Of a stretch of 44,496 nt of DNA, positions 1,773 to 40,477 are shown in pieces. The number at the start of each line of letters is the position of its first letter. Within the stretch, counting starts at the first letter, position 1. The DNA comes from Candidatus Omnitrophota bacterium (lineage in GTDB: Bacteria > Omnitrophota > Gorgyraeia > Gygaellales > Profunditerraquicolaceae): positions 1 to 44,496 of the forward strand of contig JAUYEC010000145.1 of the NCBI GenBank assembly GCA_030691585.1. Direction: 5' to 3'. Position numbers and translations under genes: made by a program. The notes below the pieces were generated by a model that was not told the origin of the DNA, did not search any database, and worked only from the letters and a program-made list of their open reading frames with translations.

Positions 1773-1829
1773 GTAAATTTTATATATAACGGCTGATAAG
1801 CTAAAACGACTTTTAATGCGCAATTATCT

Positions 1830-1860
1830 TGTAGGGACAGGTTTGAAACCTGTCCCTACA
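1830..1860. repeat. family-A palindrome (A2 subtype): TGTAGGGACAGGTTTGAAACCTGTCCCTACA
   Basis: Perfect 14-bp arms around a central G. It ends 17 nt upstream of the giant ORF start codon. Confidence 0.95.
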
Positions 1861-1877
1861 GAAGAATCCAAAGTAAA

Positions 1878-1964
1878 ATGATTAAAATAACCGTCAGAAA
1901 AATCTATAAAATATTAACCATTCTACTCTGCTTTCTGCTTTGCTTTGAACAATCCGGTTTCGCC
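1878..1964 (+). other. Sec-type signal peptide of the giant protein (aa 1-29)
   Basis: MIKITVRKIYK (basic n-region), ILTILLCFLLCF (hydrophobic core), EQSGFA|QVAG (small-x-small cleavage context). Confidence 0.75.
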
Positions 1965-4900
1965 CAGGTTGCCGGGCAATTGGATATTTCCGGCTACCTC
2001 ACCCAGCTGCGGCAGTCCTGGACTACCGACAAATTCCGCCCCTTGCACCTGCGTTACCTTTCCTACGATAATCTGAATAATACTTTTAAGCTCCTTTTGG
2101 ATAAAGGAGATCAATCGAAAGATTCTGTAGGGACAGGTTTGAAACCTGTCCCTACAACAAACGGTGATAGCGCTCCTGTAGGGACAGAACATCGTTCTGT
2201 CCCTAACATCGAAACAGAGACCAAAACTCTGCTCAATTATTTCTTCATCGGCGTTTCCCTGCCCAACGACACATTCTGGGTCAATCTGCGGCCCGACTCG
2301 CCGGACAACATGATCGATCCGCTCCTTGCGTCAACTGACGTCGGTAAGATACTCTTGGAAGCCGACGTCCAGCTAAAGAAAGACACCGCTAAATGGACTT
2401 CTCCTGATTCCCCCGAAGGCAGAGAATACTGGGATAAATTATACCAAAAAGCCGGTGAAATCTTCGGCTCTGAAAATATCACTATTCCTACTCTTACCCG
2501 TCCCTGGATCGTGCCCGATGAAATCATTATCCGTGAATCAGATACCAATGCCTATATTTACAAAGCCACGCTCAAGGTAATGCTGGAGGAAGATTATCTC
2601 AACAACAACGGTAGGGACGGGTTTGAAACCCGCCCCTACAATTTTGATGATCCGCGTCTTAAAGAACTAAACGTCTATTCCTCCCAGCTTATTCGCGAAC
2701 TGATCATCCCCAAACTTACCAAAGAAATCAACATCTCCAAGCGTTACGCTCCCCTAAGGCAGGTTTATTATTCCCTGATCATGGCCCAGTGGTTCAAACA
2801 GAAATTCTATGGTTTGGGAGGATTATATTCCTCGCTGATTGACAAAAGAGACCTTTCCGGATTAACCTCTAAAGAACAATGGTCAAAAGACACCTACTTT
2901 GCTGCCTACCAGAAGTCCTTTAAAGACGGTGAATATAATTTTAAAGAGCCGGTGCGTACCCTTTTTGGCCAGAGTATCAGGAGTTATTTTTCCGGGGGGT
3001 GTGCTATAACCGGTGATTCTGTGGCTGCAGCTTATGCGACAGGAGGCAGGATAACGGCTGGCGCAAACAGAAGATTGCCGCCGGAATTAGCAAAGAACGG
3101 CCGGTTCGTTGATGGCAAGGGAGGAACGCCGGACGATCTTGCTCTAAGCGGGGCAAGCCCGTCCCAATCTGTCGCCGCGCCAAGCGCGCAGACGGCAATT
3201 AAGACGGCAACGCAGAATAAAGATGTCCGCTATTTTAAGTTAGGGGACGTGATTTGCGGCGCGTATGACCCGGTGGATGGCCAAATGTATTTTGATTTTG
3301 ACGCGATTAAAAAGGCATTACCTGATATAACAAAAGCCCAGGCAGTAAATTTACTCTATTTGCATGAAGCTTTTCATGAGGTAATCGACAGGGTAGGTAT
3401 TGTAATTGAAAACGAAGAAGCGCTGGTTAATGCTTTAGCTAAGGAGAAATTAAATATAACGTTGACGACGGAAGAAAACGGCGCATTAGCGGCCTGCCGC
3501 GGAGGAGAAGCATATAAACATTTACAAGGCGATGCTAAAGGCCTGCTTGATTATAAACCTTTCGCTGCAGAAAAGATCGGGACGTTTGAGGATCCGATCG
3601 GGGATTTTATGCTTAATCTGCAACGTATTCTGCCGGGCGCAGCTTTTAACAAAGTCCAGGCAGCTGTCTTTACGCAGGAATTTATTAAGAAGCTCGAAGG
3701 GCATGGAGCACGATTTAGGACGGCAACAATGGAGGCACCTGCCGATGAGGCAACATCAATAACCGGTACGGCCGCTGAGGAGATCGATGTTACTTCTTAC
3801 GCGGAATCCGCTAACGGCGCCAATGGTCAAGAGCCGCGTGATGGCGGAAGGCTAAAATTGCGCCCGCTTCGCGAAGACTTGTCAAAAATGAAATTGGAGG
3901 CAGATGACCTGCTGCCTGTCGGGCTAGGCGACTCAGGCGCAGATATTGCCATGCGTCAAAAGATAGCAAAAATAATGAACGGCCTGACGGTTAATATTGT
4001 GTTTGACCAGGCACGGGAAGAAGAAAAGTATGTATATGCGCAAGATGTGGGATCTGAATGGGTCAATAGCCAGGTTAAATCATTAGCCGCCCGGGATGAG
4101 GATATGTATAAGGTCGGGCGTGCCTTAGAAAGCGCGCTTGAACAAAATATACAATTTCAGATTGAAAAGAAAATTTTGAGCTATTGTCAGCAAAACAGCA
4201 GATTTTTGTCCCGCCAGCATCCATTGGTAGAGGCATTGCAGGCCTATTTGGACCGCACGGCTGATCCCGGCAAGCCAAAGGCCCGTTTATTTGTGGCAAT
4301 AGACGGAACCGAAGCCATGGGTTTTTCTTTCGGCAACAGCATTGTCGTGAATTTAGCCCTTATTGCAGCATTGGATACTATAGATGAAGCCGTAAGTGTG
4401 CTTTATCATGAACAGCAGCATCATGAAAGATATTGGGATCGCGGGTCCTTGGGCCGCGGTGGCGTGTTCGCCTTTATCAACGACATATCCAAGAGTAGGC
4501 TTCAGGAACATGAGGCTGACCTTGTCACGCCCGAAAAATTAGCCAGGGTCGGGCTTAATACTTCCGCTTTGTCAGATGCGTTGCTTAAAATAGCCGGGGT
4601 TCGTTCTCAACAGGATATGACGCACGGAAACGTCTCAAGAAGGGTCCTTGCGAACCTGATTTGGCACAAAAAAATAGATTTGGAAGGCGGGGTCACTGAC
4701 GGCAGGGCCCAAGTAAATATTCCCATGCCTTCTGACTGGAGGCCTGCCGAGATACTGCCAAATGTAAACGAAAGGCTATTGGCTGACGGTATGTCCGATT
4801 TCCGCCGCGCGGTTGCCGAGGCGCCGGTAGATATGCTGCTCGGTGTATTAAAAAGTTTGGTTGAAAAAACAGGCGCTGACAATATAGATAAACTTCTCTT

Positions 4901-7900
4901 TGTCATTTCTCATCTTGGTAAACAAGTATCTTCTGATGCAAGGAGAGCCGGATATTCACCGCGCCAGGCGGAATTAATGGCCCTGGCCTTATTAACAAAA
5001 GCCGGGGGAACGGATGATTGGCTGAAGCTCTATTTAGTCACTTTGGGCCGCGCGTCAGAAAGGATCAAGGAAATATTACGCAGGGCGGCTGTGTCTGCCT
5101 TGCAAGAAGTAAATGGCGATCCCCTGCTTGATAACCGCGGGGCGATGGCGGCAGGCCGCCAATTATTTAATGCCGACCTGAACCGCGCGGCCGATATTGC
5201 TGCCAGGGCATTTATTTATGATAGGAAAGTAAGACAGGGCCTGTTCGCGGACAGCCTTGAGGTGGCAGATGACGGTTATTTAATACCGGCCGCCTCAGAA
5301 CTATGGCAGCTTGCAAATCGCAGAAAGGCCGGGCAAAAAGAATTTTTTATGCAATACGCGCCTCTAATGACAGGTTGGTATGTGGATAATTTCTGGAACA
5401 ATCATCCTAATGACCATGCAAATTTTCTAGTTCTCGTCGCGCAGTTAAAAGCTGCGCACGCGCATTATCGGCAATTGGCCGATGTCAGCCAGCAGGAACT
5501 TATAGGCATGTATGATGTGGAAGTCAAGCTGAAAAGCAAGTTGCTAAACGACCCCAGTGCGTACGCTTATTCAATGAGGCTCGTCGAAATGGCCATACCA
5601 AACCATATAATAAGCGCGCAAGAGGCGATTGAAACGCTCTTTGAGATAAAAAATGAGGCTCTGGATATTTTGATAACTGCCCTGCGTGATAAAAACGAAG
5701 CGGCCTTTCTGCAATTATTGGCAAAACATCCCGATGCGCTGCTGAATAGTTTAGAGAATTGGCACCGTGAACGCAGGCTTGTCGAGCTTGGAGAGAATTC
5801 GCCTGAAATATGGAGCTGGCTGTATGAAACAGTGAAGAGCAATTGGCATAAGGATTCATTTGTGTTTCCTTCATCCATTCCGGATCCGGGCAAGAAGGGG
5901 CTCGATTTAGCGGATTCATTAGGCATACGTTACGCAATGGAGGGAAGAGATGACCCGATAACGCCCGATGCAAAAGTGCAGCCCGGATTAAGCAGGCTGT
6001 ATTATGCCATAGAGATAATCTGCTGGCTCAAGGTGCGCAGCTCGACAGAAAGGGCGCGCATGATAGAAGAATTTCTGGGGGGCCAAGAAGCCGTATCAGT
6101 CGTGAATTCCGCGCCCTGGATAGCCTTAGAATCTATTTTGAGATCGCTGGGCTCGGGCGGCTTCTCCAATGTCAATGCGCCTGATGATGAAACAAACGAA
6201 ATTCAAAAAGCATGCCGGGATAGAGTATTAAATACTTTGCCTTTTCTCCGCGTGAGAGATGGTTTATTGGTTTACCTGGCCGCGGCAGAAGATTTGAGAC
6301 AGGGTGGAAAAATATTCGGGAAGCTTTCGGAATCGTGGGATCTTTACGGACGAAGTTGGGGGAAAATTAAGGCGCAAGGCTTCTCGGAAGCCCATAATCG
6401 CTGGCTCGCGCCTGCCAACCGCGGTTACTGCGAATTGCTAAAAAGGGCATTATCTTCGCTGGATATTGCAAGCGAACCCGAGGAAGCAAGGAATTTTTAT
6501 TTTAAGCTAGCGGAATTCCTTCCCCCCGGCGCGGAAAGATCCGGTGTCTTGCGAGCCTATGCGATGCGTTTGGTAGAGCAGCTTCCTAGAGGCGAGCTGC
6601 ATTGGTTTTTGAACGAACTATCGCGTCAGGGCCAGATGGACAGGCAGATCTATGAACATTTTGTGCAGGTCAGGGTAAAAACATACAGGGAAGATTTCAG
6701 GGAATTTAAAAATTTCCTCAAACAGAACATAAATGAACTTGTTACAAGCGGCGACCTGAAGTTAAGCGGGTTAACCGCCCTAGACACGGTACTTGATCAA
6801 ATACTGAATGAAAATCTCGCCCGAGAGGTATTTGTTGCCATGCTCGGTTCCGGAAAGAATGATGCCGCTTTGCAGGCCCTGCTTGTGCCATATTGGTATC
6901 AGGCTATGGCCCACACGGAAGGTTTGGGATATTACATCATTAATAATAACGGGCGATTGGAGGTGGCCGGGGTAAACAAACCCAGGTTTGTCTCGTTTCC
7001 CCAATTCATGGATACGCTCTACAACATAAGCCCGGTTGTAAAGCTGATGATTTTGGAGAAATTACTCTTAAGCCCTAATGGATTATTACATCAATCTAAA
7101 GAGGCAGATGCCAATTATGGCAAAAAAGAGTTTGCCGCGGCTTTAGCCCAAAACTTGCCGCAAGATGGAGAATTGTCTGGATTGATAAGGGATGTTCTTT
7201 TTGCCTCAGGGGAATCACTGGAGGCAGAAGTGATGTTTTTGGCGTTAGCCAACCCTTTGCTTTCACAGTTTTTGCAAAGGCCCCCATCCGGGATTCGAAC
7301 GAACAACACCGAGTTAGCAGAAGCGATAAAAAATAACTTGAACAAGCACCATTCTTTTTCAGATAAAGTGCTGGCTGCGGTGGGGAGGCATGATATCAGC
7401 GCTTATGCGGATTTCCTGGACCGCTATAATAGCATTACTGCAACAAATGTTAAGGCAGGTTGGGAAACAGAAGCAGGTATAAGCTCGCTATATGATTCGC
7501 TAACGCAATCATTTGGCTTTCGGCCCACAGAAGCATCTTCCAAAGGCCCACAGGTATCCGCGGCAAGCGGCCCAATGAATATAATTGTTGAAGCCTGCCA
7601 AAGCTTAGGCCCTGTCGGCGTTAGGTTCTTGCAGGTTTTAGGGCAATATATGGACATACCTGAAGAATACCAGGAAAAATTCCGGGATATCTACGATTCT
7701 ACCAAGGGGCAGGATAAATTGATTGCCTTTAATACGCTAGACGCTTTATATTACGCTGCCATAGATCACCCGGAGAACCAGGAATTAGCGGAAATAAAAA
7801 AGTTTATAGATGAAGATCTTGTTTCTTTGGACAGCCAGATTGGAGGCGGTTCTATTGTGACCGTATTCTTAGTGACAGTGCGCGATCGTGATGCGTCCGG

Positions 7901-10900: not shown

Positions 10901-13900
10901 CAGCGCGGCGGCTAAAATTGCAGAAGAACAATGGGGGGATGAAGGGGAAGATGTAAGCGCAGGTAGTGCACGAGATGCCGTTGATCTGAGTAAGTTAACC
11001 CGTATCAATTCTATCAGCGAAATACTGGTATCGCCAAGATTTATTGAATATGGACAAGCGATACGCACAGGGAGCAAGCCCAAAGACAATCTATATGGAG
11101 AGATTGTAATATTGGACGCGGATCCGACAACGGCTGAATTAGAAGAGATTGCGAATCTGCCCTATGAAATGGCGCTTTTCAAAATTAAAGATGGTAGATG
11201 GGTAGTGGGTGTCGGCAACGGCCATAGTCCGCCGTTAAGAATGTATAAAGACAACCAGTTAAAGGCAATGGTGATAATAGCTATACATAATCACCCCGGC
11301 GAAGGCTTAGTGCCTTCTCCTGAAGATATTGGCGCAGTTGAAGGAATGGAGCGCGCCACGCATGTTATTTTAGCAGGAAAAATCGCAATGATTTATCGCG
11401 GACTAGATGCCGCGCAGAAACGGAAACTAGAAGCAGGTTTTGCCGAACGGATGGGTATGCCGGAGGCCGCTTCCGCGCCCATGCCTAACGCGGCCACCAT
11501 TGAATTAAAAGCGCGTTGGGAGGAAATAAAGGCGCAGATGGCGGCAGAGATTAGGCAAACAGGCGTGACCATAAGCGTGGATGAGCAGTGCAGGAGAATT
11601 TTGAAAGTATATCAGGATATAGGAATGGACTTTAGGACTTTGTCTATTCCAGGATTGGTTGCGAGGCTTGATCTATCGTCTGCGGATACTTTTGTTGTGC
11701 CCGGAGCGTTGATTACCGCGTTGGAAAAAGAAGGATTGGTTGGGCGCAGTTTTGAGCAGGCGCTGTTGGGCATGCATAGAGGCTATAAGGCAGAAATCGA
11801 AAACGAGTATCCGGCTTTCGCCAACCTGCTTGCACAACCCGGCAATAGATTGGATTGGCACCATATCATACAGGCAGTTGCCGATCACAAGTACGTCCGT
11901 TGGCTTGCGCGTCAGCTTGGTGCCTCTTACGAAGATGTTTTTCTGCGCTTTAACGCTTCAAGTATCGGCCCGCAAGATCAGCTTTCTTTTGCCGATAAGC
12001 AGAAGGTTATCAACGCCCTTTTGGCTTCTGTGCATAGCGTGTATTTTGATTCTAAGGGCAGAAGTGTCAATATGCAGGGCTACCTCGAGGATTATTACGG
12101 GCCCTTGGGAGTTAAGGTCTCTGTTCGTTTTGAAGAAGCCACAGGGGCTTTGCGCGAAGACGTTATTAAGAAGGCGCTATGGGGCAGGATGAAGACTGAT
12201 AAAGCCCTGGGAATTCTTAATATTCTCAGGGAAGGAGGTATGCCGGCATTAAAACAGCGGCCCGAGTTTCTGGATATCGCAAAAGCTATTGAGCCAATAT
12301 GGAATGCAGAGGTGCCCATTCCTATTGTTTTAATAAATTCTCAAGGTAGAACATTTGAGACTATCATTGTGGCCGCTAAGATTACAAAAGAGGGGGTGTC
12401 CGGCCCGGCTACGGCAGCGGTTGTCCTTCCTTTAAAAAATATTCAAGGGGAGATCATCTTGATGGATGTCATCAAAGATATAGAGACTACCCAGGGGGTA
12501 TTTGATCTTTTGGGCAAACTGATTCATGAATTAGATCACGCGGTATTGATGACTGTGACCGGACGGCAAATTTATCACGCCAGTATATTTGCGGAAGGCG
12601 CCGCCGAAGAATCCTTTGCCGCCTTTATGGCAGCGCAGGATGGGCCGATGAGCCGCAACGGCGTTGACGGCCTTGATTATGATTCCGCTATCAGGTTATT
12701 TGACCGGCAAGCCGATCCGGACAGAGGGGCCGTTCCTTATACTGCCGGATGGCTCATGGCCCATGCTTATCGCGGCGTAATGGGTGAGCAGGCATACTTT
12801 GACTTATTCTATAATCCGGATAAATACGCGCAGGCTCAGCCTGTAGCTGATGCTTTTATAGGCGACTTGGAGCAGGTTTTAGCACCCCGTCGGCCGATCT
12901 ATAGAACATTATTTAGCCCTGTTTCAGCCCCAGCCGTTACTTCCGCCGCCGTCGGCGAAAGGCGCTATGCCGCACCAGAAATAAGGCAGATGATGCAAGG
13001 TAAAACACTTGACCTGCGATCGATGACAGGGGCCCCCGCAGACATAACCGATGACACCATCTTAGTTCTGACTCCTGATAGCGAATACATAATTCGAAAC
13101 GGCGCCCATATGGCAGTTCACAAAAGAGATAATTATTATTGGATTGAAGGCGGCGGCATGCCGGAGGAGCTTATTCGGGCAAGGCAAGAGCGCGAGCGCC
13201 AGGCGCAGGTCGGACAAGGCCAAACAAGCGGCCCCGGCGCGGCGGAGCGAGGTGATCGGGAGACTGTTAAGCGAAATTTACGCGCTGCTATTCAGTTAGC
13301 TGATGCCCGGGCGAAGACCGCCAGCGATTCTTACTACAAGCACAGCCAGATATTAGCAACAGCAAAAGAAGACCTTGCCAATTTCGAAAGGGGTATTTCT
13401 TCGCTGAAGGCACAGCTGGGTTATGCAGACAACAATATTAAGTCTAAGCAGCAAATACTGAACACTTTGCTGGGCAACCAAAATCAAGATTTTGCCAATA
13501 TGGGTTTTTGGGAGAGACGAAAAAACAAAGGCGCAAATGCTCCATACGCAGCGCCTATTGCAAGCGCGCAGGAAAAATTGCGGGAATTGAATGCGAAAAA
13601 ACAGGAATTGCAGTATTCCTTAACAGAAAAAACCGTTGCCCTTGAGGAACAAAAACAAAAAGTTGTTTCTTTGCAGGCCGAAAATGACCAGTTGGCCAAA
13701 ACAAACGATGAGGCAAAACAAGTTTCGTTGGCCCTCGCAATTATTGATGACATGGGGACTAAACAAATGCTGACTCCAGAGGACCAAATGCACATTGTTG
13801 CTCCCGAACGCCTTTCGGCTATTGCCCGGACAGCACCAGCAGGGTATATCCGGCAAACCATTTATCTTGCTGCCAAGGGAAAAATTGAAACCGGAGATCA

Positions 13901-16900
13901 GGCCAAGCCCTGGCTTTTGGAACGGTTAAAAAATGATTTTAATAATACAAGCCCATTAGTCAATTCTTATTCTTTAGAAACATTATCTATGGAAACGGTT
14001 GATCGGACCAAGAAGTTCCTCTCCCAGGCCGATTTTGATAATAAATCCACCGATGCGCAGTATGTCTTTTCGGAAATGCAAAAACAAGGAATCGATTTGG
14101 CCTCGGCCGATTTGCCGGAAACATTTGCCCGTATCCTGGCTGAGCGGGATATCAGGTCAGCGCAAGGCGAAGGCCAGGGGACCGGCAAGGTTTCTCTTGT
14201 GTCAGTTCAACGGGATCACTTTATGGCCCGATATAATCGGGAAAATATTTCCCGCATGAGCATGGAAAGATATCTCGCCTTGTACGGGCAGACCGCGGCC
14301 AAGGATTATGTGATCCATGGTTTTAGCTGGGCAAGTCCGAAATTCCCGCAGGTTTTGGCAGAAGGTAAACTTAAGCCTTCTGCTCCATATCAGAAAACAA
14401 CTTTTGGCACAGGGGCGCAAACGCATTCAGTACATTTCTCTGTTAATGAATCGGCTTACAATAATCCGATCGGTCTTTTTGCGCCAATCGGTGCGGTGAT
14501 CCAAAACGTGCCGTTTCAGATGATGACAAACTCCGAAATGGCCAGCTTGGCTAATGACTGGCCGGTGGCCGGGGACCAAGAGGTGACGCTGGACATCGGC
14601 ATCTTGCTGGTGCCAGACATATTGGATCCTGCGAAAAGTTTTGATGGTCAGAGGTTAGCGGAGATAGATTTACGGTGGCAGAGTGCCAGTAAAGCGCAAC
14701 AGTTAAGCATGCTTGCAGAAGCCCGAAGAAATATCCAGTCTTTGATACAGCAAGGTCAGCGGGTTTATTTTTATAAAGCGAATCTGGATCACATCTATTA
14801 CATGAGCAGCGGTGTCGAGCAGCTACTGAGAGATAAAGCGGAATTTGTTAAGAGGGGCGGGACTGTTGATGAAACGTTTTTGAATAAAATTGTGAATCCC
14901 GACAAACACACTCCCCAAGAGATAAGGATTGCAGGAGATTTGGAATATTCGCACAATGTCGCCTTAACCGATTCGCAGGAGGACACATACAAGTTCTCTC
15001 ATAGCCAACCGGGCTATACAAATACTAAAGGTCAAGGTTTGTTTGTGAAAGTAACAGCATTCAGGCAGGGAGGTGTAAAAGAGACAAATTTTGGTGCATC
15101 AGAAACCGTTCAGTCATCTTTAAATGCCCGGCAAATCAGGGATGCCTTGGATAACGGCAAACTTGATTTAAGGGGTGCGGCCGGCGGAGTAATTACGGAG
15201 GCGATAATTGACGATAGCGCCGTATTGGATTTAACTCCACGCGCTGAATATATCATATTAAACGGCGCCCGGCGAGCAGTTCACAAAGTTGGAGATCATT
15301 ATGAAATCGGCGCTGAAAGCGGCGGAATGCCGGAAGAGCTTATCCGGGCAAGGCAAGAACGCCAGCGCCAGGCGCAAGGACAGCCTGCGTCGCAGCCGCC
15401 AAGCGGCCCTTCCGCGGCGGAGGACGGAACAAGGGGTGTTGTGTATTATCATCAGAGCGATGTTGAGATCGATGGATCGCTAGGGCCATCTAAAACAGAT
15501 GTCTTAGCGGGTGTTTGGTTAAAACGCGAACCAGCTGATCTGAGGTTGCAGGGTAAATCTTTGGGGCGGTATCAATACGTAGTTCAAGTCAGCGATAAAA
15601 CAGAAAAAAACACATTGACCGTTACAAAGATAACCCGATGGGTTGGAAAAGCAGGAGAGCCTAGAGATAAGACTCAAGGCACATTGCAAGATTTTCTGAT
15701 TGAAAACGGGAGGCAGGATTTAGCCGAAAGACTACAGAGGGGATATACTAAGTTGCCTGGTGCAGAATTTTTAACAGCCTTGCGCCATGATCTCACTGAA
15801 TTTTTGTTGCTTAGAGGGTATAAATATATTGAATTTACAGATGCCGGTGATATCGTTGGCCGCGGTTTTGTTGAATTTCCAGCGGTGATTGCCCTTGAGA
15901 CAGCTAGTTTATCAATTTCCGGAAGGGAATTTACTCCAGTCGCCGTCGCGGCGGGAGAAGAGAACCGGACGATTGGCAACGGTATAGCCGTTGGCTTCAA
16001 GACTTCGCAAGGCAGCGCATATACCTTAAATGGGACTAGTACGCAACGCAATAAAACAAGTCATGCTTTTCACGATCCAAAGGATGTTGGTGTTAAGCCC
16101 ACAAGCGAGCGTACTTACTATGTAGCTCCCGAAGCGGCAAAGTGGATAGGAGCGTTCCAGGGGTTAGAAGGAGGTATCGAACACAGAAGGATATATATAA
16201 ATAATGAAGGCGTTTCCACAATCGCTTTTCACAAAACGAAAAATCGATGGGTTAGATTCGATGGCCCATTTAAAATTTCCAATACGCCGCAAATTGGTTT
16301 GTGCCCGCTGGAATTATGGGGAGAGGATTCCCAAGCAGGGAATGCGTACTCATATAACGAATGGCATCCGGGTAATCAAATTGTTGAAATAGTTTATGGA
16401 GATACTCAAATAGCACAAAAAGAGGAGCAGCCGCCAAGCGTCCCCGGCGCGGCGGCAACCTCCGTTACTTTGATCAAGGCAGATATATTCCAGGATATAG
16501 CGGATCGATATGAGGGGGCCTCTTGGGATCCGTCGCTGTTTGATGATGAAGATTATCTGAATGCCGAAGGTAAATATAACCAAGAGCCGGCATATAGATT
16601 CCGCAATAGAATACCGCATTATCTTGCGGCCGTAGAAAGATTAGGCCAAATACGTGCCACAGTTGCTGAAGGCAAACAATTAACGCAGGAACAGTTAATA
16701 TTAATAAAAACGATAGAAGTGCATTTTCGTTTACGTGGTTACTTGTGGTATTGGGAAGAGACGGGAAAGAGCAGGGTAACATTTCCGGCGAAAGTGACAT
16801 TGAGCCGCGCGCTCAACATGTTGTTCGGTCAGGTCAACGATTTGGATCATATGTTGGATTTCTTCGAACTTATGCTGCTTAGGCATGTGAATAGTTTCGC

Positions 16901-19115
16901 TCACCACATGAAGGGAATTGATCTCGGCGCAAAACAAGAAATGATTACAACGCGGATCAAGGATATTACCGAAAAATACCGTGATCCGTGGTTGACCGAG
17001 CGGCTGGATTTTTCCCAGATTGGCAGTGAATGGAAGGAAACGCGTAAAAAAACAGATGATGAAAAAACGCAAGAATTCAGAGAACAAGACGAGATATTCG
17101 CTATCGGGGAGAGACATAACATTATGGCTCACGGGGTCGAGGAGGCCAAGGGTGGATTAAGAAATTTATTAAATATAATTCTGGAAGGTAGATTACGTAG
17201 TAACGCGGCGGGAGAATGGTTCATCGGCGAGTTAAGCGGCGGTAATTCGGAATATAAATCCGGGCCGCATGGGCCCTTTTATGCCGTTATAAATGCCGGG
17301 ATGGAACCTAATACGAATGGTGCGTTTTTATGGTATTTGGTGCCCAACACTAAAGATCAAACCGCCTTACGGGTTGCGATTGCCCAGGCGAGCAGGCAAG
17401 GATTAATTAACTCTGAGCTTGTGGCAAACGAAGGTCAAAAAGTCATTACCTATTCCGAATTCATTGCTAAATATGCTGTGGTTGATGTTTCTTCGGCTGC
17501 CGCTTCTGCGGCCGGCGGGGCAGCCGCTGTCGGCGGAAGAATCTATGATGCGGATCAATTAAGGGATGCGCTGGAAAAGAGAACACTTGTTTTTCTTTGG
17601 ATGACAGGCAAGGAGATGACAGCCGCGGAAGTCGATGATCGAGCGCAATTAGTCATGACAGACGATCAGGGTGGCTCTCTGCGTTTGTTCGGCGTTGGTG
17701 GCCCCGTAGACGTGGTCGCAAAAGTAGGTGATCATTATCAGATAAATCGCGGCGGCATGCCGGAAGAGCTTATCCGGCAAAGGCAGGAGCGAGAGCATCA
17801 GGCACGGGAAGCACAAGGCCAAGCAAGCGGCCCCGGCGCGGTGGCGCAGGCCCGGCCTGGCGAATCGACCGCATCCGTCAAAACCGCCGATTGGGAAAAC
17901 ACAATGACTGCTCCCGCTACTCTGCCGGCTAAGCCTGCTCGGTTCCGTTTTATTGTCCATGCTTTAAAATTATCAGACGATCCGGCCCACCTGGGATTGA
18001 TAGAGCGTGTCCGAGCAACAGGCAGACATGATCCTTCGCTAGAAATAAATCTGCTGAAAGAACCAAAGAGAATATCCGAGAAGCCGATAATCTCTACATC
18101 TGTGATTGATGAAACGCATATTTCTACGTGGGGGTATGGAGGGTATATTTTAGGTGTACCCGCCGATAATATATTAAGAACAGGCTCTCAGTTTGCCGCG
18201 ATGATTTTTGGAGGCGGCCAGGAACAGGCAGACAAGTTATATGCCGAGCGGGACAGTAAAGGGGTGCTTAGCCCGGGCGAGATATTAAAAAAGACCAAAG
18301 ATCAATGCAATGAAGTGGTTATTACGGGAAGAGGTAGAAGCGGAGAATTGGTCGAGATCGAAGGGGTATTTATTAAGATTGATTCGCAAGGTAAACCCCT
18401 TGAGGAAGAATTAGCCAGTAAATTAGTTGCTCTTGCCCGTCAAAATAACTGGCCGATAATTTTAATCAATGGGCCCCTTATAAAATACACAACCCCCGGC
18501 TTAGGGTGGCAAGATCGTAGCCAAAACGTTCAAGATATCTCCCCTCAAGATGTAGCTACTCATGTTAATCCCGGAGATCCCGCTGTTACAACTAATGAAA
18601 GCGGTCAATTGGTTTTTGATCTTGCTAAAGCGGGACAAGGTATTGCTCTGGCGCAGGCCCAACTCGTCACGGAGAAGGCGCAGAAAGATAAAGGCACAGG
18701 CGGTATAAATTTTACCGGCATGCCGATTGTGACGCAGCCGATGATTAGTCAGGGACGGTTCTCTGGGGGCGGCGCTGTAAACGCTTTGCCGAGAACCGTC
18801 CCTGTAGAGCTGATTAAGAAATGGCAAGAGATAGAGCGGCTGGTGAAAGCGGATATTATGCCGTCTCCGGAGAGGCTAAGGGAATATTTACAGGATTGTT
18901 ATGCCGGCGGATGTATGGATACGGAGATAGACAAGGTTTTGGGTTGCATTGCCGATATATTGAGAAAAGAAGAGGAGCGTGGCTGTTTGACTGAAGCGTC
19001 ATTAAAGGAAATTCTGGTTGCGTTGGAGCAGGAAAGTTCAGCCGCGAATTTGGCCGCGGCGTTGAATAAGATCAGCGTTTCACCGGGAGAGCCGCAATTA
19101 ATTCCCGGGGCATAG
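1878..19115 (+). CDS. giant secreted multidomain protein, 5,745 aa (peptidase, JAMM and ABC1-kinase signatures; mostly unknown function)
   Basis: There is no stop codon for 5,745 codons from ATG 1878 to TAG 19115. It has an N-terminal signal peptide and several catalytic motifs (listed as sub-features), and a hairpin plus T-tract follows downstream. An ORF this long cannot arise by chance. Confidence 0.9.
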   Translation: MIKITVRKIYKILTILLCFLLCFEQSGFAQVAGQLDISGYLTQLRQSWTTDKFRPLHLRYLSYDNLNNTFKLLLDKGDQSKDSVGTGLKPVPTTNGDSAPVGTEHRSVPNIETETKTLLNYFFIGVSLPNDTFWVNLRPDSPDNMIDPLLASTDVGKILLEADVQLKKDTAKWTSPDSPEGREYWDKLYQKAGEIFGSENITIPTLTRPWIVPDEIIIRESDTNAYIYKATLKVMLEEDYLNNNGRDGFETRPYNFDDPRLKELNVYSSQLIRELIIPKLTKEINISKRYAPLRQVYYSLIMAQWFKQKFYGLGGLYSSLIDKRDLSGLTSKEQWSKDTYFAAYQKSFKDGEYNFKEPVRTLFGQSIRSYFSGGCAITGDSVAAAYATGGRITAGANRRLPPELAKNGRFVDGKGGTPDDLALSGASPSQSVAAPSAQTAIKTATQNKDVRYFKLGDVICGAYDPVDGQMYFDFDAIKKALPDITKAQAVNLLYLHEAFHEVIDRVGIVIENEEALVNALAKEKLNITLTTEENGALAACRGGEAYKHLQGDAKGLLDYKPFAAEKIGTFEDPIGDFMLNLQRILPGAAFNKVQAAVFTQEFIKKLEGHGARFRTATMEAPADEATSITGTAAEEIDVTSYAESANGANGQEPRDGGRLKLRPLREDLSKMKLEADDLLPVGLGDSGADIAMRQKIAKIMNGLTVNIVFDQAREEEKYVYAQDVGSEWVNSQVKSLAARDEDMYKVGRALESALEQNIQFQIEKKILSYCQQNSRFLSRQHPLVEALQAYLDRTADPGKPKARLFVAIDGTEAMGFSFGNSIVVNLALIAALDTIDEAVSVLYHEQQHHERYWDRGSLGRGGVFAFINDISKSRLQEHEADLVTPEKLARVGLNTSALSDALLKIAGVRSQQDMTHGNVSRRVLANLIWHKKIDLEGGVTDGRAQVNIPMPSDWRPAEILPNVNERLLADGMSDFRRAVAEAPVDMLLGVLKSLVEKTGADNIDKLLFVISHLGKQVSSDARRAGYSPRQAELMALALLTKAGGTDDWLKLYLVTLGRASERIKEILRRAAVSALQEVNGDPLLDNRGAMAAGRQLFNADLNRAADIAARAFIYDRKVRQGLFADSLEVADDGYLIPAASELWQLANRRKAGQKEFFMQYAPLMTGWYVDNFWNNHPNDHANFLVLVAQLKAAHAHYRQLADVSQQELIGMYDVEVKLKSKLLNDPSAYAYSMRLVEMAIPNHIISAQEAIETLFEIKNEALDILITALRDKNEAAFLQLLAKHPDALLNSLENWHRERRLVELGENSPEIWSWLYETVKSNWHKDSFVFPSSIPDPGKKGLDLADSLGIRYAMEGRDDPITPDAKVQPGLSRLYYAIEIICWLKVRSSTERARMIEEFLGGQEAVSVVNSAPWIALESILRSLGSGGFSNVNAPDDETNEIQKACRDRVLNTLPFLRVRDGLLVYLAAAEDLRQGGKIFGKLSESWDLYGRSWGKIKAQGFSEAHNRWLAPANRGYCELLKRALSSLDIASEPEEARNFYFKLAEFLPPGAERSGVLRAYAMRLVEQLPRGELHWFLNELSRQGQMDRQIYEHFVQVRVKTYREDFREFKNFLKQNINELVTSGDLKLSGLTALDTVLDQILNENLAREVFVAMLGSGKNDAALQALLVPYWYQAMAHTEGLGYYIINNNGRLEVAGVNKPRFVSFPQFMDTLYNISPVVKLMILEKLLLSPNGLLHQSKEADANYGKKEFAAALAQNLPQDGELSGLIRDVLFASGESLEAEVMFLALANPLLSQFLQRPPSGIRTNNTELAEAIKNNLNKHHSFSDKVLAAVGRHDISAYADFLDRYNSITATNVKAGWETEAGISSLYDSLTQSFGFRPTEASSKGPQVSAASGPMNIIVEACQSLGPVGVRFLQVLGQYMDIPEEYQEKFRDIYDSTKGQDKLIAFNTLDALYYAAIDHPENQELAEIKKFIDEDLVSLDSQIGGGSIVTVFLVTVRDRDASGHICETTHQEVLKIRNPNAEMWVRQTQERALKIVDVLERQARQRGDSKSKIKQFTVARRVLRDIGEWVIQDIRDTSFMELDAHYSKAHEGAVATNGMKVRVSQAKRPNNKDVKRESLVPGITLNKLLKLASSPKPIEELIREADDAYTLELLQQAKKEGLAPAEILKRATAAVIEDFSRGLAEPAFTENGRGVYLLHSDVHFGNAIITPDLKAVYLIDRNLYLRMDKADVDFVRKIATGKASDKFATLRAIVDYFLGLPENRGSVLLSGWGFLRRFGLAREIGLKVRASGSSSPFVTMMMVLQELESRNVVIPLRMRIMFKNLASINAMLAKTGAGNFSDYVKAAERNAHEPLAAGSRMPERLSAESVITDKQELSLFVVQHDISWTLRPDEGTLGIQDIKDSRLTALSMAEDGESGDITYDGKRLHFYRVNKDGKEFYLIVTGGIAEPDPRRVPGAAAQESRTQREQQPDKQLDQDPKPQMTRRAFLLGAAGATTAAALIVAAGRLIKEKRLPVPQDQELLDIFKQGESYWRTISDDPENVPLPDRLALGKLMWEIGETVDIGFRQETATGAYDGARRLYSSQELLDAVFGVQREALDRGDFDNEKRKIKELILYLAEQVFRKELRNPQGSGSVASSIERVLEKLVEIGTNPGSFFPSPNREVIKEEVKGFSFYLEVKKRSYITGQSKTEEVVSEKEQQEQIFLMKARLAFQLYYYFPAFKEEILGKRLIKVNIHLADNMADFERMGAAMNGVTNPYAFEVIEAPVHGSYSKAMRSLSFPLRSLYLRQSLGDDISLHEMGHLISYILGWGDERQAEKIARAILKLNSSAYRKVFPIKKGKIILPKADDYGSRDYSKKDIEMVYAPYSPDKETFANLFMLCEIGTDFPEIVNSGITENERDGEEAKAIYSILSAWRQFLLEHGYKGNPPWFKKGKSLSAEANTAATAARITYDAQQLRQSLQDGSLDLRGVEGSGISEKDLEAWRARQAQGQPAAQTQNVPSAAAKIAEEQWGDEGEDVSAGSARDAVDLSKLTRINSISEILVSPRFIEYGQAIRTGSKPKDNLYGEIVILDADPTTAELEEIANLPYEMALFKIKDGRWVVGVGNGHSPPLRMYKDNQLKAMVIIAIHNHPGEGLVPSPEDIGAVEGMERATHVILAGKIAMIYRGLDAAQKRKLEAGFAERMGMPEAASAPMPNAATIELKARWEEIKAQMAAEIRQTGVTISVDEQCRRILKVYQDIGMDFRTLSIPGLVARLDLSSADTFVVPGALITALEKEGLVGRSFEQALLGMHRGYKAEIENEYPAFANLLAQPGNRLDWHHIIQAVADHKYVRWLARQLGASYEDVFLRFNASSIGPQDQLSFADKQKVINALLASVHSVYFDSKGRSVNMQGYLEDYYGPLGVKVSVRFEEATGALREDVIKKALWGRMKTDKALGILNILREGGMPALKQRPEFLDIAKAIEPIWNAEVPIPIVLINSQGRTFETIIVAAKITKEGVSGPATAAVVLPLKNIQGEIILMDVIKDIETTQGVFDLLGKLIHELDHAVLMTVTGRQIYHASIFAEGAAEESFAAFMAAQDGPMSRNGVDGLDYDSAIRLFDRQADPDRGAVPYTAGWLMAHAYRGVMGEQAYFDLFYNPDKYAQAQPVADAFIGDLEQVLAPRRPIYRTLFSPVSAPAVTSAAVGERRYAAPEIRQMMQGKTLDLRSMTGAPADITDDTILVLTPDSEYIIRNGAHMAVHKRDNYYWIEGGGMPEELIRARQERERQAQVGQGQTSGPGAAERGDRETVKRNLRAAIQLADARAKTASDSYYKHSQILATAKEDLANFERGISSLKAQLGYADNNIKSKQQILNTLLGNQNQDFANMGFWERRKNKGANAPYAAPIASAQEKLRELNAKKQELQYSLTEKTVALEEQKQKVVSLQAENDQLAKTNDEAKQVSLALAIIDDMGTKQMLTPEDQMHIVAPERLSAIARTAPAGYIRQTIYLAAKGKIETGDQAKPWLLERLKNDFNNTSPLVNSYSLETLSMETVDRTKKFLSQADFDNKSTDAQYVFSEMQKQGIDLASADLPETFARILAERDIRSAQGEGQGTGKVSLVSVQRDHFMARYNRENISRMSMERYLALYGQTAAKDYVIHGFSWASPKFPQVLAEGKLKPSAPYQKTTFGTGAQTHSVHFSVNESAYNNPIGLFAPIGAVIQNVPFQMMTNSEMASLANDWPVAGDQEVTLDIGILLVPDILDPAKSFDGQRLAEIDLRWQSASKAQQLSMLAEARRNIQSLIQQGQRVYFYKANLDHIYYMSSGVEQLLRDKAEFVKRGGTVDETFLNKIVNPDKHTPQEIRIAGDLEYSHNVALTDSQEDTYKFSHSQPGYTNTKGQGLFVKVTAFRQGGVKETNFGASETVQSSLNARQIRDALDNGKLDLRGAAGGVITEAIIDDSAVLDLTPRAEYIILNGARRAVHKVGDHYEIGAESGGMPEELIRARQERQRQAQGQPASQPPSGPSAAEDGTRGVVYYHQSDVEIDGSLGPSKTDVLAGVWLKREPADLRLQGKSLGRYQYVVQVSDKTEKNTLTVTKITRWVGKAGEPRDKTQGTLQDFLIENGRQDLAERLQRGYTKLPGAEFLTALRHDLTEFLLLRGYKYIEFTDAGDIVGRGFVEFPAVIALETASLSISGREFTPVAVAAGEENRTIGNGIAVGFKTSQGSAYTLNGTSTQRNKTSHAFHDPKDVGVKPTSERTYYVAPEAAKWIGAFQGLEGGIEHRRIYINNEGVSTIAFHKTKNRWVRFDGPFKISNTPQIGLCPLELWGEDSQAGNAYSYNEWHPGNQIVEIVYGDTQIAQKEEQPPSVPGAAATSVTLIKADIFQDIADRYEGASWDPSLFDDEDYLNAEGKYNQEPAYRFRNRIPHYLAAVERLGQIRATVAEGKQLTQEQLILIKTIEVHFRLRGYLWYWEETGKSRVTFPAKVTLSRALNMLFGQVNDLDHMLDFFELMLLRHVNSFAHHMKGIDLGAKQEMITTRIKDITEKYRDPWLTERLDFSQIGSEWKETRKKTDDEKTQEFREQDEIFAIGERHNIMAHGVEEAKGGLRNLLNIILEGRLRSNAAGEWFIGELSGGNSEYKSGPHGPFYAVINAGMEPNTNGAFLWYLVPNTKDQTALRVAIAQASRQGLINSELVANEGQKVITYSEFIAKYAVVDVSSAAASAAGGAAAVGGRIYDADQLRDALEKRTLVFLWMTGKEMTAAEVDDRAQLVMTDDQGGSLRLFGVGGPVDVVAKVGDHYQINRGGMPEELIRQRQEREHQAREAQGQASGPGAVAQARPGESTASVKTADWENTMTAPATLPAKPARFRFIVHALKLSDDPAHLGLIERVRATGRHDPSLEINLLKEPKRISEKPIISTSVIDETHISTWGYGGYILGVPADNILRTGSQFAAMIFGGGQEQADKLYAERDSKGVLSPGEILKKTKDQCNEVVITGRGRSGELVEIEGVFIKIDSQGKPLEEELASKLVALARQNNWPIILINGPLIKYTTPGLGWQDRSQNVQDISPQDVATHVNPGDPAVTTNESGQLVFDLAKAGQGIALAQAQLVTEKAQKDKGTGGINFTGMPIVTQPMISQGRFSGGGAVNALPRTVPVELIKKWQEIERLVKADIMPSPERLREYLQDCYAGGCMDTEIDKVLGCIADILRKEEERGCLTEASLKEILVALEQESSAANLAAALNKISVSPGEPQLIPGA
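2126..2156. repeat. family-A palindrome (A2) inside the giant ORF, in frame
   Basis: TGTAGGGACAGGTTTGAAACCTGTCCCTACA, identical to the intergenic copy at 1830. It is translated as S-VGTGLKPVPT-T. Confidence 0.95.
2177..2208. repeat. family-A palindrome variant inside the giant ORF, in frame
   Basis: TGTAGGGACAGAAC-ATC-GTTCTGTCCCTAACA. The outer GTAGGGACAG/CTGTCCCTA(A)C clamp is kept and the inner stem differs but stays complementary. It is translated as PVGTEHRSVPNI. Confidence 0.85.
2610..2640. repeat. family-A palindrome (A1/A2 hybrid) inside the giant ORF, in frame
   Basis: GGTAGGGACGGGTTTGAAACCCGCCCCTACA with one arm mismatch. It is translated as NGRDGFETRPYN. Confidence 0.9.
3363..3377 (+). 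other. HExxH motif 1 of the giant protein (HEAFH, aa 496-500)
   Basis: LLYLHEAFHEVIDRV read in frame. Only the pentapeptide is recognisable and no family can be assigned. Confidence 0.35.
4281..4661 (+). other. M48 (HtpX/Ste24/BepA)-like zinc metallopeptidase core in the giant protein (aa ~802-928)
   Basis: ARLFVAIDGTEAMGFSFGNSIVVNLALIAALDTIDEAVSVLYHEQQHHE ... SRLQEHEADLVTPEKLARVGLNTSALSDALLKI ... THGNVSRRV. This matches the M48 layout: NAFA-like strand, HExxH, downstream E-x-x-AD, and a terminal H-P/G-x-x-x-R. Confidence 0.6.
7575..8610 (+). other. ABC1/UbiB (ADCK)-type atypical protein-kinase-like core in the giant protein (aa ~1900-2245)
   Basis: Three family-order elements are present. 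GPVGVRFLQVLGQYMDIPEEYQEKFRDIYD matches the K-x-GQ...P-x-E-x-x-x-L-x-x-L-x-D helix. SQIGGGSIVTVFLVTV...EVLKIRNPN matches the nucleotide-binding strands. LLHSDVHFGNAII...VYLIDRN matches the H-x-D-x-H-x-G-N catalytic loop. Confidence 0.7.
9342..9434 (+). other. internal Met followed by a twin-arginine-signal-like / transmembrane segment (aa 2489-2519)
   Basis: ...QDPKPQ-M-TRRAFLLGAAGATTAAALIVAAG-RLIKEKR. T-R-R-x-F-L matches the Tat consensus and is followed by an Ala/Gly-rich hydrophobic stretch and a basic c-region. A Q/P/D/K-rich low-complexity linker precedes it. Confidence 0.6.
10290..10304 (+). other. HExxH motif 3 of the giant protein (HEMGH, aa 2805-2809)
   Basis: DDISLHEMGHLISYILGWGDE read in frame. 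No family could be assigned. Confidence 0.4.
10746..10912 (+). repeat. giant-ORF spacer module, short form (a)
   Basis: ITYDAQQLRQSLQDGSLDLRGVEG...WRARQAQGQPAAQTQNVPSAAA. It shares the head (x-Y-D-A-x-Q-L-R-x-x-L-x-x-G-x-L-D-L-R-G) and the tail (QAQGQPA...VP-x-AAA) with modules b-d. The nucleotides CAAGGACAGCCTGCG are identical to module c. Confidence 0.8.
11088..11405 (+). other. JAB/MPN+ (JAMM) metalloisopeptidase-like domain in the giant protein (aa ~3071-3176)
   Basis: MVIIAIHNHPGEGLVPSPEDI gives H3137-x-H3139-x7-S3147-x2-D3150, which is exactly the JAMM H-x-H-x7-S-x2-D zinc-site signature. Confidence 0.7.
12312..12791 (+). other. gluzincin-type metallopeptidase-like domain in the giant protein (HELDH-x18-E, aa ~3479-3638)
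   Basis: LGKLIHELDHAVLMTVTGRQIYHASIFAEGAAEESFA. This is HExxH (aa 3550-3554) followed after 18 residues by E in an F-A-E-G context, the spacing seen in M1/MA-clan gluzincins. Confidence 0.55.
12958..13250 (+). repeat. giant-ORF spacer module, full form (b)
   Basis: RRYAAPEIRQMMQGKTLDLRS...ILVLTPDSEYIIRNGAHMAVHKRDNYYWIEGGGMPEELIRARQERERQAQVGQGQTSGPGAAE. ATGCCGGAGGAGCTTATTCGGGCAAGGCAAGAGCG is nearly identical at nucleotide level to modules c and d. Confidence 0.85.
13260..13748 (+). other. long coiled-coil segment of the giant protein (aa ~3795-3957)
   Basis: Heptad-like, K/E/Q/L-rich sequence without Pro/Gly over long runs: ...ILATAKEDLANFERGISSLKAQL...QEKLRELNAKKQELQYSLTEKTVALEEQKQKVVSLQAENDQLAKTNDEAKQ. 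Confidence 0.6.
15121..15422 (+). repeat. giant-ORF spacer module, full form (c)
   Basis: LNARQIRDALDNGKLDLRGAAG...AVLDLTPRAEYIILNGARRAVHKVGDHYEIGAESGGMPEELIRARQERQRQAQGQPASQPPSGPSAAE. Confidence 0.85.
17538..17850 (+). repeat. giant-ORF spacer module, full form (d)
   Basis: RIYDADQLRDALEKRTL...AQLVMTDDQGGSLRLFGVGGPVDVVAKVGDHYQINRGGMPEELIRQRQEREHQAREAQGQASGPGAVAQ. Confidence 0.85.
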
Positions 19116-19123
19116 TATTGCGA

Positions 19124-19154
19124 TGTAGGGACAGCATAATATGCTGTCCCGACA
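19124..19154. repeat. family-A palindrome (A3 subtype): TGTAGGGACAGCATAATATGCTGTCCCGACA
   Basis: It starts 9 nt after the giant-ORF stop. The inner stem ACAGCATA/TATGCTGT surrounds a central A, and the 3' clamp has one change (CCCGAC instead of CCCTAC). Confidence 0.9.
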
Positions 19155-19166
19155 AAAAATTGAGAC

Positions 19167-19237
19167 AAAAAGGGGCGCCCCTGCCTTAAAGGTTTATCAG
19201 CCGAAAAAGGCCCATCATCAGGCGCCCCTTTATTTTG
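19167..19237 (+). terminator. candidate intrinsic terminator of the giant ORF
   Basis: The 11-bp stem AAAGGGGCGCC (19169-19179) / GGCGCCCCTTT (19221-19231) is followed by ATTTTG. The 41-nt loop has a small inner stem (GCCTT/AAGGC). This long loop lowers confidence. Confidence 0.5.
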
Positions 19238-19247
19238 CAAAAATGCA

Positions 19248-40458: not shown

Positions 40459-40477
40459 GCGGATATCCAAAAGGTTT

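Follow-up and report, generated by a model that had tools for sequence, protein, structure and literature searches.

Omnitrophota are ultra-small, uncultivated bacteria that are thought to live on or prey on other cells, and the giant genes in their genomes form an acknowledged puzzle that offers almost no handle on function. The present analysis deals with a stretch of 44,496 nucleotides (nt) from a Candidatus Omnitrophota bacterium (contig JAUYEC010000145.1; the whole stretch is hereafter called the window) and with the open reading frame (ORF) in it that encodes a protein of 5,745 amino acids (aa), hereafter the giant. Judged by sequence comparison, the giant is the extreme and largest member found of a paralogous protein family that is almost confined to Omnitrophota and is apparently undescribed, and in which a conserved N-terminal region (the head) and a conserved C-terminal region (the tail) enclose variable cargo. 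Giant multi-enzyme proteins of the 'archaeovorin' type have been described from the phylum (Kizina 2022, as cited in PMC10066038; West-Roberts 2023, bioRxiv 10.1101/2023.11.21.568195; Nielsen & Lui 2026, bioRxiv 10.64898/2026.06.07.730766), and giants that unite a signal peptide with multiple enzymes have been published (bioRxiv 10.1101/2023.11.21.568195; bioRxiv 10.64898/2026.06.07.730766), as has the dependence of these bacteria on hosts. The window protein resembles these giants in coming from the same phylum (as judged from its homologs), in combining a signal peptide with an internal hydrophobic segment, in carrying many unrelated enzyme-like modules, among them peptidases, that mostly lack Pfam matches, and in its proposed role towards a host or prey. 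It differs from them in length, with 5.7 thousand amino acids (kAA) against the thresholds of 10-30 kAA used in the catalogues of Omnitrophota giants (and well short of the >30 kAA of the archaeovorin definition), and in having one internal hydrophobic segment where those have tens. Unlike the archaeovorin-type giants it also lacks SecA-DEAD, C39, S8, glycosyl hydrolase, glycosyl transferase and dockerin domains according to Pfam, and no TSP3 or transmembrane-rich region was found in it. A limited literature search on Omnitrophota giants returned no description of the head/tail family, of the system of spacers and junctions inside the giant, or of its core of M48 peptidase and ABC1-like kinase. 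The earlier note on this DNA had named the giant as the most likely home of an undescribed system, which is fair only in part: it may stand for the head/tail family and falls for multi-enzyme giants with signal peptides as such, since these are already known from the phylum.

Among functional systems, the nearest analogy to the giant is provided by the MARTX toxins, which are 3.5-5.3 kAA long, have conserved N- and C-terminal regions flanking variable, strain-shuffled effector modules, and contain a built-in protease that releases these modules at linkers. The likeness lies in the logic of conserved ends and exchangeable modules and does not extend to homology. Neither repeats of the RTX or glycine-rich kind nor a cysteine protease domain of the C80 family were found in the giant (Pfam, self-comparison), its signal is an N-terminal one of the Sec type whereas MARTX toxins use a C-terminal type I signal, and any protease activity would be that of a metalloprotease rather than of a cysteine protease. 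The C-terminal domain (CTD) of the type IX secretion system (T9SS), an Ig-like beta-sandwich, and the TPS domain of TpsA proteins, a beta-helix, both sort many unrelated and often very large cargo proteins; the T9SS CTD is described in PMC11285876. The head/tail family is similar to these systems in that a signal peptide and a conserved terminal domain recur on many otherwise unrelated large proteins of one genome, and it differs in that the tail is a predicted helical bundle, the head is a predicted alpha/beta domain without structural match, and a partner transporter is not linked to the genes. Finally, two patescibacterial fusions of M48 and ABC1 domains (P0003 and P0004, ~1,450 aa, annotated as 'AarF/UbiB family protein' in Candidatus Paceibacterota) are homologous to the core of the giant along its length and differ from it by having no signal peptide, no head, no tail and no extra modules.

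The first 400 and the last 185 residues of the giant were used as the family query, which matched at least 402 proteins, nearly all of them from metagenome-assembled genomes of Omnitrophota and 55-69% identical to the giant in the head. The middles of the matched proteins are unrelated to one another and most have no Pfam match; the cargo that could be named comprises CheR, FHA with a metallophosphoesterase, HEAT, several families of S-adenosylmethionine (SAM) methyltransferases, DnaJ, M23 and a phosphoribosyltransferase, many of these enzymes being dependent on ATP or SAM or of a cytoplasmic type. In the BLAST table and in the retrieved proteins the head is always N-terminal and the tail always C-terminal, with 50-590 aa between them in ordinary members, and the two keep to opposite ends in members that span 537 to 4,842 aa. 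Five proteins of only 589-612 aa cover 96% of the family query, so that these minimal members consist of a head and a tail and nothing else, while typical members carry a single cargo of 300-500 aa and the giant a cargo of ~5,200 aa. The head alignment, which includes 91 sequences, retains more than 50 invariant columns, and the signal peptide in front of it is conserved throughout the family, including its end ...FEQSGFAQ. The common plan of the family is thus a Sec-type signal peptide, an alpha/beta N-domain of ~350 aa, variable cargo, a disordered linker with the motif GGI[DN]F-x-LPIxTQ and a helical C-domain of ~110 aa. Neither Pfam nor NCBIfam holds a model for this family.

The giant conforms to the plan at both ends. 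Its signal peptide with FEQSGFAQ is followed by the head blocks FWVNLRPD, TRPWIVP and LRQVYYSL..WFK, and aa 7-377 are 59% identical to P0154 in addition to their similarity to P0001 (Table 1). The tail of the family was defined by GGI[DN]F-x-LPIxTQ together with a helical domain, PSxERIKEY...CIxDILRLEEE, that closes the protein; in the giant, aa 5585-5741 contain GGINFTGMPIVTQ...PSPERLREYLQ...CIADILRKEEERGC, and the tail is 45% identical to that of P0154. The chain had been described as modular in the earlier note, and this description was confirmed, although the first ~380 and the last ~160 residues had there been overlooked as the domains that define a family.

When one genome per GTDB species was scanned, 477 family loci were found. 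Among the best 80 of these 477 loci nearly all are labelled Omnitrophota, with 2-4 paralogs per genome, and a few are labelled Planctomycetales, Thermodesulfovibrionia or Margulisiibacteriota, which we take to be noise of binning or labelling. One pair of family paralogs lies 4 kb apart. A viral or mobile origin of the family was considered and rejected because a scan of 2.9 million viral contigs gave merely 2 family loci. Other members show how modules known from the giant are combined: P0128 (2,083 aa) has a JAMM module directly after the head, P0005 has a spacer in the same position, and P0154 (4,842 aa) consists of a head, HEAT repeats, an intein, a Fic-like domain, a HELDH module and a tail. 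The intein splicing domain of P0154 lies inside the cargo at aa 2327-2681 (PF14890, 79.9 bits).

The structure of head and tail was predicted with AlphaFold2 for P0022, one of the minimal members, from the alignment of 91 sequences (predicted TM score, pTM, 0.74). In the model, residues ~50-340 form a domain of three beta-hairpins and six long helices with a predicted local distance difference test (pLDDT) value of about 90, residues 341-471 a disordered linker, and residues 497-589 a five-helix bundle, again with a pLDDT of about 90. The motif GGIDF-LPIVTQ falls into the low-confidence linker, as is expected of a linear motif. A Foldseek search of the model against PDB and BFVD gave no match at E<=0.001; the best match in PDB was NheA (E 0.98, TM score 0.14).

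The ORF of the giant extends on the forward strand from an ATG at 1878 to a TAG at 19113-19115 in a single frame of 5,745 codons with 0 internal stops, and its GC content (0.46-0.49) and GC skew are even along the whole length. The N-terminus, MIKITVRKIYKILTILLCFLLCFEQSGFA followed by QVAG, has on inspection four Lys/Arg residues ahead of a hydrophobic core of 12 residues, and then G-F-A before Q, and thereby the shape of a Sec signal peptide for signal peptidase I, in a pattern that is conserved family-wide. Besides the signal peptide, a hydropathy scan of the complete protein found a single further hydrophobic segment, at aa 2491-2514. Downstream of the stop codon a 36-nt palindrome (19118-19153) is followed by a GC-rich stem at ~19169-19232 and then by UUUAUUUUG; the minimum free energy of this terminator-like hairpin is -51.9 kcal/mol (z = -6.1). 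The earlier note had read a single frame without stops, a Sec-type signal peptide and a downstream hairpin with T-tract from this sequence, and all three were recovered, the signal peptide both by its n/h/c shape and by the family-wide conservation of FEQSGFA before Q. The motifs listed there for the giant (HEAFH, HEMGH, HELDH, JAMM, TRRAFLL and the kinase) were likewise all located at the residues given.

Self-comparison of the giant showed no tandem arrays, and Ig, cadherin and RTX arrays were found neither in this way nor with Pfam, in agreement with the view that the protein is built from unique modules and is not a repetitive adhesin. A spacer of ~100 aa occurs in five related copies, three of which (aa 3682-3800, 4407-4525 and 5221-5330) have a mutual identity of 44-54%; the copy at aa 3682-3800 is 77% identical to one in P0126. 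In addition, the junction motif [VG]P[GS]A[AV] is present six times (aa 2461, 3007, 3785, 4510, 4855 and 5318) against 0.13 expected, always closes a Gln-rich linker (...RARQERERQAQGQ...PQS-GPGAA), and is visible at the DNA level as repeat family D2. P0126 has the motif twice in equal context. The six junction motifs divide the chain into seven segments that agree with the module boundaries, and with five related spacers and six junctions the conserved spacers that had been proposed are real. Between its DNA copies the spacer keeps an identity of 78-90% over no more than 63 nt, and no exact DNA repeat within the ORF is longer than 21 nt, which makes an assembly collapse at the spacers unlikely.

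Most of the giant is dark to reference databases. Pfam and NCBIfam models were run on both halves and on ten 700-aa tiles of the protein without a match above cut-off, and a phmmer search of both halves against all PDB sequences found nothing. Below threshold, Pfam scores of 15.7 (M48), 17.2 (RadC-type JAB) and 12.3 bits (TAT_signal) were obtained, as were cross-hits to coiled-coil families at about aa 3798-3949. A search with aa 1801-3266 matched just four proteins among 5.8 billion. The motif HExxH is present four times (HEAFH 496, HEQQH 844, HEMGH 2805 and HELDH 3550) against 0.12 expected, a count that 0 of 5,000 shuffles reached.

The closest relative, P0001 (2,557 aa, on a 34.7-kb contig), aligned to the giant by BLAST in three blocks (Table 1), and the giant therefore corresponds to a P0001-like protein with ~280 aa added after the head and ~3,200 aa added before the tail. 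The core shared with P0001 consists of an M48 zinc peptidase, a linker of ~940 aa and an ABC1/UbiB-like kinase. P0003 and P0004, in which M48 and ABC1 domains are both recognised by Pfam above threshold, align to aa 1544-2349 and 1885-2344 of the giant, and P0002 is a partial Omnitrophica protein. In the M48 alignment the H, E and H of the motif and the downstream Glu in RLQEHEAD are invariant between the giant and its relatives; for PF01435 (cut-off 20.3 bits) P0003 (30.6 bits) and P0004 (34.8 bits) pass, and P0001 (19.8 bits) and the giant (15.7 bits over 37 residues) stay below. A profile of the M48 region built from the giant and its relatives matched the PDB entries 3c37 (E 1.8e-9) and BepA (8e-5). 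No family match was found for the linker at aa 941-1879 in the Pfam tile scan. In the kinase region GGGSIVTV, VLK, HSDxHxGN and DRN are invariant, with the catalytic loop HSDVHFGN at aa 2204. The giant itself has no PF03109 match even at E<=5, and its assignment as a putative kinase rests on the scores of the homologs P0003 (63.7 bits) and P0004 (49.6 bits); the kinase profile matched aminoglycoside and Ser/Thr kinases in PDB weakly, on the catalytic loop. The readings of M48, ABC1-like, JAMM and HExxH modules hold at the level of motifs or profiles. No homolog was found for the segment at aa 381-659, and this segment and aa 3958-5584 matched nothing, although for the latter the homolog search also missed the known spacer relatives. 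As a side observation, the large Omnitrophota proteins P0002 and P0126 share modules with the giant, lack head and tail, and have similar C-termini ...W(Q)xxQ(Q/K)(A/V)ATSL, which hints at a second conserved terminal tag.

The insert of ~3,200 aa comprises a coiled coil, about four dark modules and three metalloprotease-like ones: an HEMGH module (module A), which carries the relic of a Tat-like signal, a JAMM-like module and a gluzincin-like module with HExDH. An exhaustive phmmer search of 1.84 billion representatives with aa 2520-3719 returned 26 relatives, which sort into three independent modules. That segments of the giant occur as separate genes elsewhere, as had been suggested for checking, was seen for the HEMGH and HELDH modules, which stand alone in other genomes, and the JAMM module recurs in other large proteins. 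Stand-alone homologs of module A have 430-580 aa (one is labelled Altiarchaeota) and an invariant HE[LMV][GA]H. In the alignment with P0130, a stand-alone homolog, the hydrophobic segment MTRRAFLLGAAGATTAAALIVAAG in front of module A coincides with the Tat-like signal at the true N-terminus of that protein, from which it follows that the module was captured together with its signal. In the giant, TRRAFLL and the hydrophobic core after it are internal (aa 2490 of 5,745) and not N-terminal, and the score for PF10518 (TAT_signal) of 12.3 bits does not reach the cut-off of 22.7. The JAMM motif HxHx7Sx2D is complete at aa 3137-3150 and conserved in P0126 and P0128, to whose modules the giant's is 44-48% identical; with PF04002 (cut-off 22.1) P0128 scored 22.4 bits and the giant 17.2 bits, and a JAMM profile matched RadC (E 0.13) and BubCD (0.44) in PDB marginally. 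In the HELDH module, which also has stand-alone homologs, the H, E, D, H, E, A and E columns are invariant.

An AlphaFold2 model of aa 2520-3719 was of high local confidence for module A (pLDDT 85-97) and the HELDH module (80-95) and of low confidence for the JAMM module. Foldseek found no PDB match at E<=0.001 for this model, a 1,200-aa multi-domain query that may blunt sensitivity, and profile searches of PDB with module A and with the HELDH module also found nothing. The cargo of L078, a further member of the family, was weakly matched by aa 5093-5196. No close relative turned up when metagenomes were scanned with aa 3800-5585 or with the JAMM alignment.

Table 1. Positions of the predicted features of the giant ORF and its flanks in the window, and of the blocks aligned with P0001.
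Feature	Nucleotides (strand)	Residues	Remarks
Sigma-70-like promoter match TTAACC-18-TATAAT	1743..1772 (+)		5' of ORF; consensus match alone
REP-like palindrome GTAGGGACAG-N9-CTGTCCCTAC	1824..1861		Directly 5' of start codon
Putative Sec-type signal peptide	1878..1964 (+)	1-29	c-region FEQSGFA/Q; by inspection and family conservation
Family-defining N-domain	1965..3017 (+)	30-380	FWVNLRPD; >50 invariant columns; 61% identical to P0001
P0001 block 1		7-377	61% identity
Two in-frame REP-like palindromes	2120-2157, 2171-2206	81-111	Encode VGTGLKPVPTT, VGTEHRSVPN
Third in-frame REP-like palindrome	2606-2641	245-254	Encodes GRDGFETRPY; absent in P0011, present in P0006
Giant-specific segment	3018..3854 (+)	381-659	P/Q/A/G/S/T-rich linker aa 410-452 and HEAFH 496; motif alone
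P0001 block 2		659-2362	34% identity
M48-type zinc peptidase	4095..4697 (+)	740-940	HEQQH 844; third-ligand Glu in RLQEHEAD
Conserved linker region	4698..7514 (+)	941-1879	Common to P0001, P0002, P0003
ABC1/UbiB-like atypical kinase (putative)	7515..8957 (+)	1880-2360	GGGSIVTV, VLKIRNPN, HSDVHFGN, IDRN
Spacer, diverged	9060..9275 (+)	2395-2466	Ends in VPGAA aa 2461
Internal Tat-signal-like hydrophobic segment MTRRAFLLGAAGATTAAALIVAAG	9342..9419 (+)	2489-2514	Only internal hydrophobic stretch
Module A, putative zinc peptidase	9456..10700 (+)	2527-2941	HE[LMV][GA]H
Spacer, truncated	10701..10919 (+)	2942-3014	VPSAA aa 3007
JAB/JAMM metalloprotease-like module	10905..11687 (+)	3010-3270	HNHPGEGLVPSPED
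HExDH-x18-EGxAE module, putative gluzincin-type peptidase	11658..12977 (+)	3261-3700	HELDH 3550-x18-E
Spacer	12921..13277 (+)	3682-3800	...GGMPEELIRARQERERQAQ...GPGAA; junction aa 3785
Coiled-coil segment	13269..13748 (+)	~3798-3957	Sub-threshold cross-hits to coiled-coil Pfam families
Dark module	13749..15095 (+)	3958-4406	No Pfam/PDB match
Spacer	15096..15452 (+)	4407-4525	GPSAA aa 4510
Dark modules	15453..17537 (+)	4526-5220	Split by VPGAA aa 4855 (nt 16440-16454)
Spacer	17538..17867 (+)	5221-5330	GPGAV aa 5318
Dark module	17868..18629 (+)	5331-5584	No Pfam match
Family-defining C-terminal region	18630..19115 (+)	5585-5745	GGINF-x-MPIVTQ; Cys-containing helical bundle; stop codon
P0001 block 3		5585-5729	35% identity
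REP-like palindrome and GC-rich hairpin with U-tract, intrinsic-terminator-like	19118..19240 (+)		3' of stop codon

The genes that share the window with the giant are of a housekeeping kind (a SIS-domain protein, a tetrapyrrole-methylase-type protein, a nucleotidyltransferase/HEPN pair, pyrimidine biosynthesis, fpg, a V-type ATPase and a LAGLIDADG protein). Around the loci of P0001, P0107 and P0017 neither a conserved neighbour nor linked transporter or secretion genes were found. The pair directly 3' of the giant gene (19305-20349) consists of a nucleotidyltransferase with a winged helix-turn-helix and a HEPN protein and is toxin-antitoxin-like. A perfect inverted repeat of 19 bp (19265-19306) lies before this pair and overlaps the pair's promoter-like site. 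Other members of the family, too, have toxin-antitoxin pairs beside them (L002). The LAGLIDADG protein is free-standing (41468-42454), and a 412-aa ORF within the pyrimidine biosynthesis cluster (23328-24566) has no Pfam match and no identical protein on record. A CarA identical to that of the window is present in L085 (Logan SRR13727536), and this run probably contains the organism.

A family of REP-like palindromes of ~30-36 nt (GTAGGGAC[AG]G-N9-C[TC]GTCCCTAC) has 20 half-site matches against 0.9 expected and occupies the sites 818-931, 1824-1861, 2120-2157, 2171-2206, 2606-2641, 19118-19153, 30638-30666, 40429-40507, 42590-42599 and 44347-44402. Three copies lie in frame in the giant and add loops to the conserved head domain, the residues encoded by the first two being absent from the paralogs. 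They recall the Rickettsia palindromic elements, which insert into coding sequence. The octamer ATCCAAAG has only two sites in the window, one preceding the ORF start (1866-1880) and one preceding Met2489 (9328-9344), and two sites were reached in 3 of 100 shuffles. This shared octamer may mark an internal translation start that would give a signal-bearing product of 3,257 aa. A Shine-Dalgarno signal was looked for at Met2489 and not found, and most genes of the window are also without one.

On balance, the giant is probably best read as a Sec-exported multi-enzyme platform for delivery or display, with a logic like that of MARTX toxins and possibly processed by itself. As such a platform it would be exported by Sec, head and tail would serve as an invariable chassis by which the cargo between them is anchored, sorted or translocated, and the cargo enzymes would act outside the cytoplasm of the producer. 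The most plausible site of action would be on or inside a cell that these episymbiotic bacteria use as host or prey, which fits what has been published on host dependence in the phylum. The junctions [VG]P[GS]A[AV] would be hinges or cleavage sites, where modules could be set free by one of the five metalloprotease-like modules that the protein itself contains. A bolder version holds that head and tail are an unrecognised Sec-dependent delivery chassis of new fold that brings enzymes of a cytoplasmic type (kinases, methyltransferases, DnaJ, Fic, peptidases) to host cells or into them, and that the giant processes itself at [VG]P[GS]A[AV] by means of its own metalloproteases; in this full form we hold the proposal only tentatively and consider it doubtful.

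Several observations weigh against reading the giant as an exported platform. Its role as an effector platform is something that we infer, and cleavage at the junctions is pure inference, since these may be hinges or traces of duplication. If aa 2491-2514 act as a stop-transfer segment, the C-terminal 3,200 aa including the tail would be cytoplasmic, which conflicts with a uniform role of head and tail as chassis. M48 and UbiB-type proteins usually act on the cell's own envelope. Secretion, pilus and host-interaction genes were not found near the giant or near two other members; the neighbours are housekeeping genes and toxin-antitoxin pairs. The predicted folds of head and tail match nothing in PDB or BFVD, and a homolog search with aa 3800-5585 found none, although it missed the known spacer relatives too and is thus no proof of absence. 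An independent full-length copy of the giant was not found either: the sole full-length match, P0125, was discarded as a second copy because it is identical to, and in fact is, the window's own protein.

The main rival is that the giant is an envelope-resident housekeeping enzyme, tethered to the inner membrane by aa 2491-2514 after its insertion by Sec, that serves quality control and lipid homeostasis of the producer through its M48 peptidase (like BepA or HtpX), its UbiB-like kinase and its other peptidases, with head and tail docking to the envelope and with no host role. We regard this as unlikely, yet it draws on the match of the M48 profile to BepA, a periplasmic quality-control protease, on the UbiB type of the kinase, on a gene neighbourhood that is of a housekeeping kind and in which secretion genes were not found, and on the combination of a signal peptide with a transmembrane segment, a common class reported for long proteins of Omnitrophota. 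It is at odds with the cargo of the family, as DnaJ, CheR, SAM methyltransferase, phosphoribosyltransferase and Fic-like domains need cytoplasmic cofactors or partners; the proposed anchor would moreover place the tail on the side of the membrane opposite to that in the minimal members, and the segment is Ala/Gly-rich and homologous to the N-terminal Tat-like signal of stand-alone proteins.

Less likely than this housekeeping role are two further explanations. Head and tail might pack and polymerise as a lattice or fibre on the cell surface, like flagellin or S-layer proteins, the middle being a permissive site for the display of enzymes and the giant a subunit with an oversized display region. 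Conserved ends around a hypervariable middle are the plan of flagellin and S-layer proteins, the minimal members consist of the two ends, a coat of giant protein has been suggested for Velamenicoccus, and the pTM of 0.74 in spite of 133 disordered residues suggests that the two domains were perhaps modelled in contact. Several divergent paralogs per genome would, however, have to co-assemble, and the Foldseek searches of PDB and BFVD revealed no structural likeness to a known polymerising protein, so that a coat appears improbable to us. It is still harder to believe that the giant is an assembly chimera or a decaying fusion, joined from a P0001-like gene and others at the spacers or at paralogous heads and tails. 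The only full-length match is the protein of the window itself, its closest relative has less than half its length, and at the opening of the insert ATCCAAAG stands before an internal Met and a signal-like segment, just as it stands before the true start, points that speak for a chimera; 5,745 stop-free sense codons, in contrast, cannot come from chance in-frame joins, exact internal repeats are too short and base composition too uniform to suit such an origin, head and tail are present once each and at their proper ends, and other multi-kiloresidue members of the same plan exist (P0154, P0128).

The head/tail family ties the puzzle of the Omnitrophota giants to hundreds of proteins of ordinary size, of which the minimal and small members (~590-1,000 aa) are small enough to be expressed, localised and solved. 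The two conserved HExxH modules of the insert, with confident predicted models and no structural relatives, are candidates for new families of metallopeptidases. If the chassis is indeed a device for export or delivery, the list of its cargo would be a catalogue of candidate effectors for the phylum, and the giant would be a natural fusion of multiple effectors.

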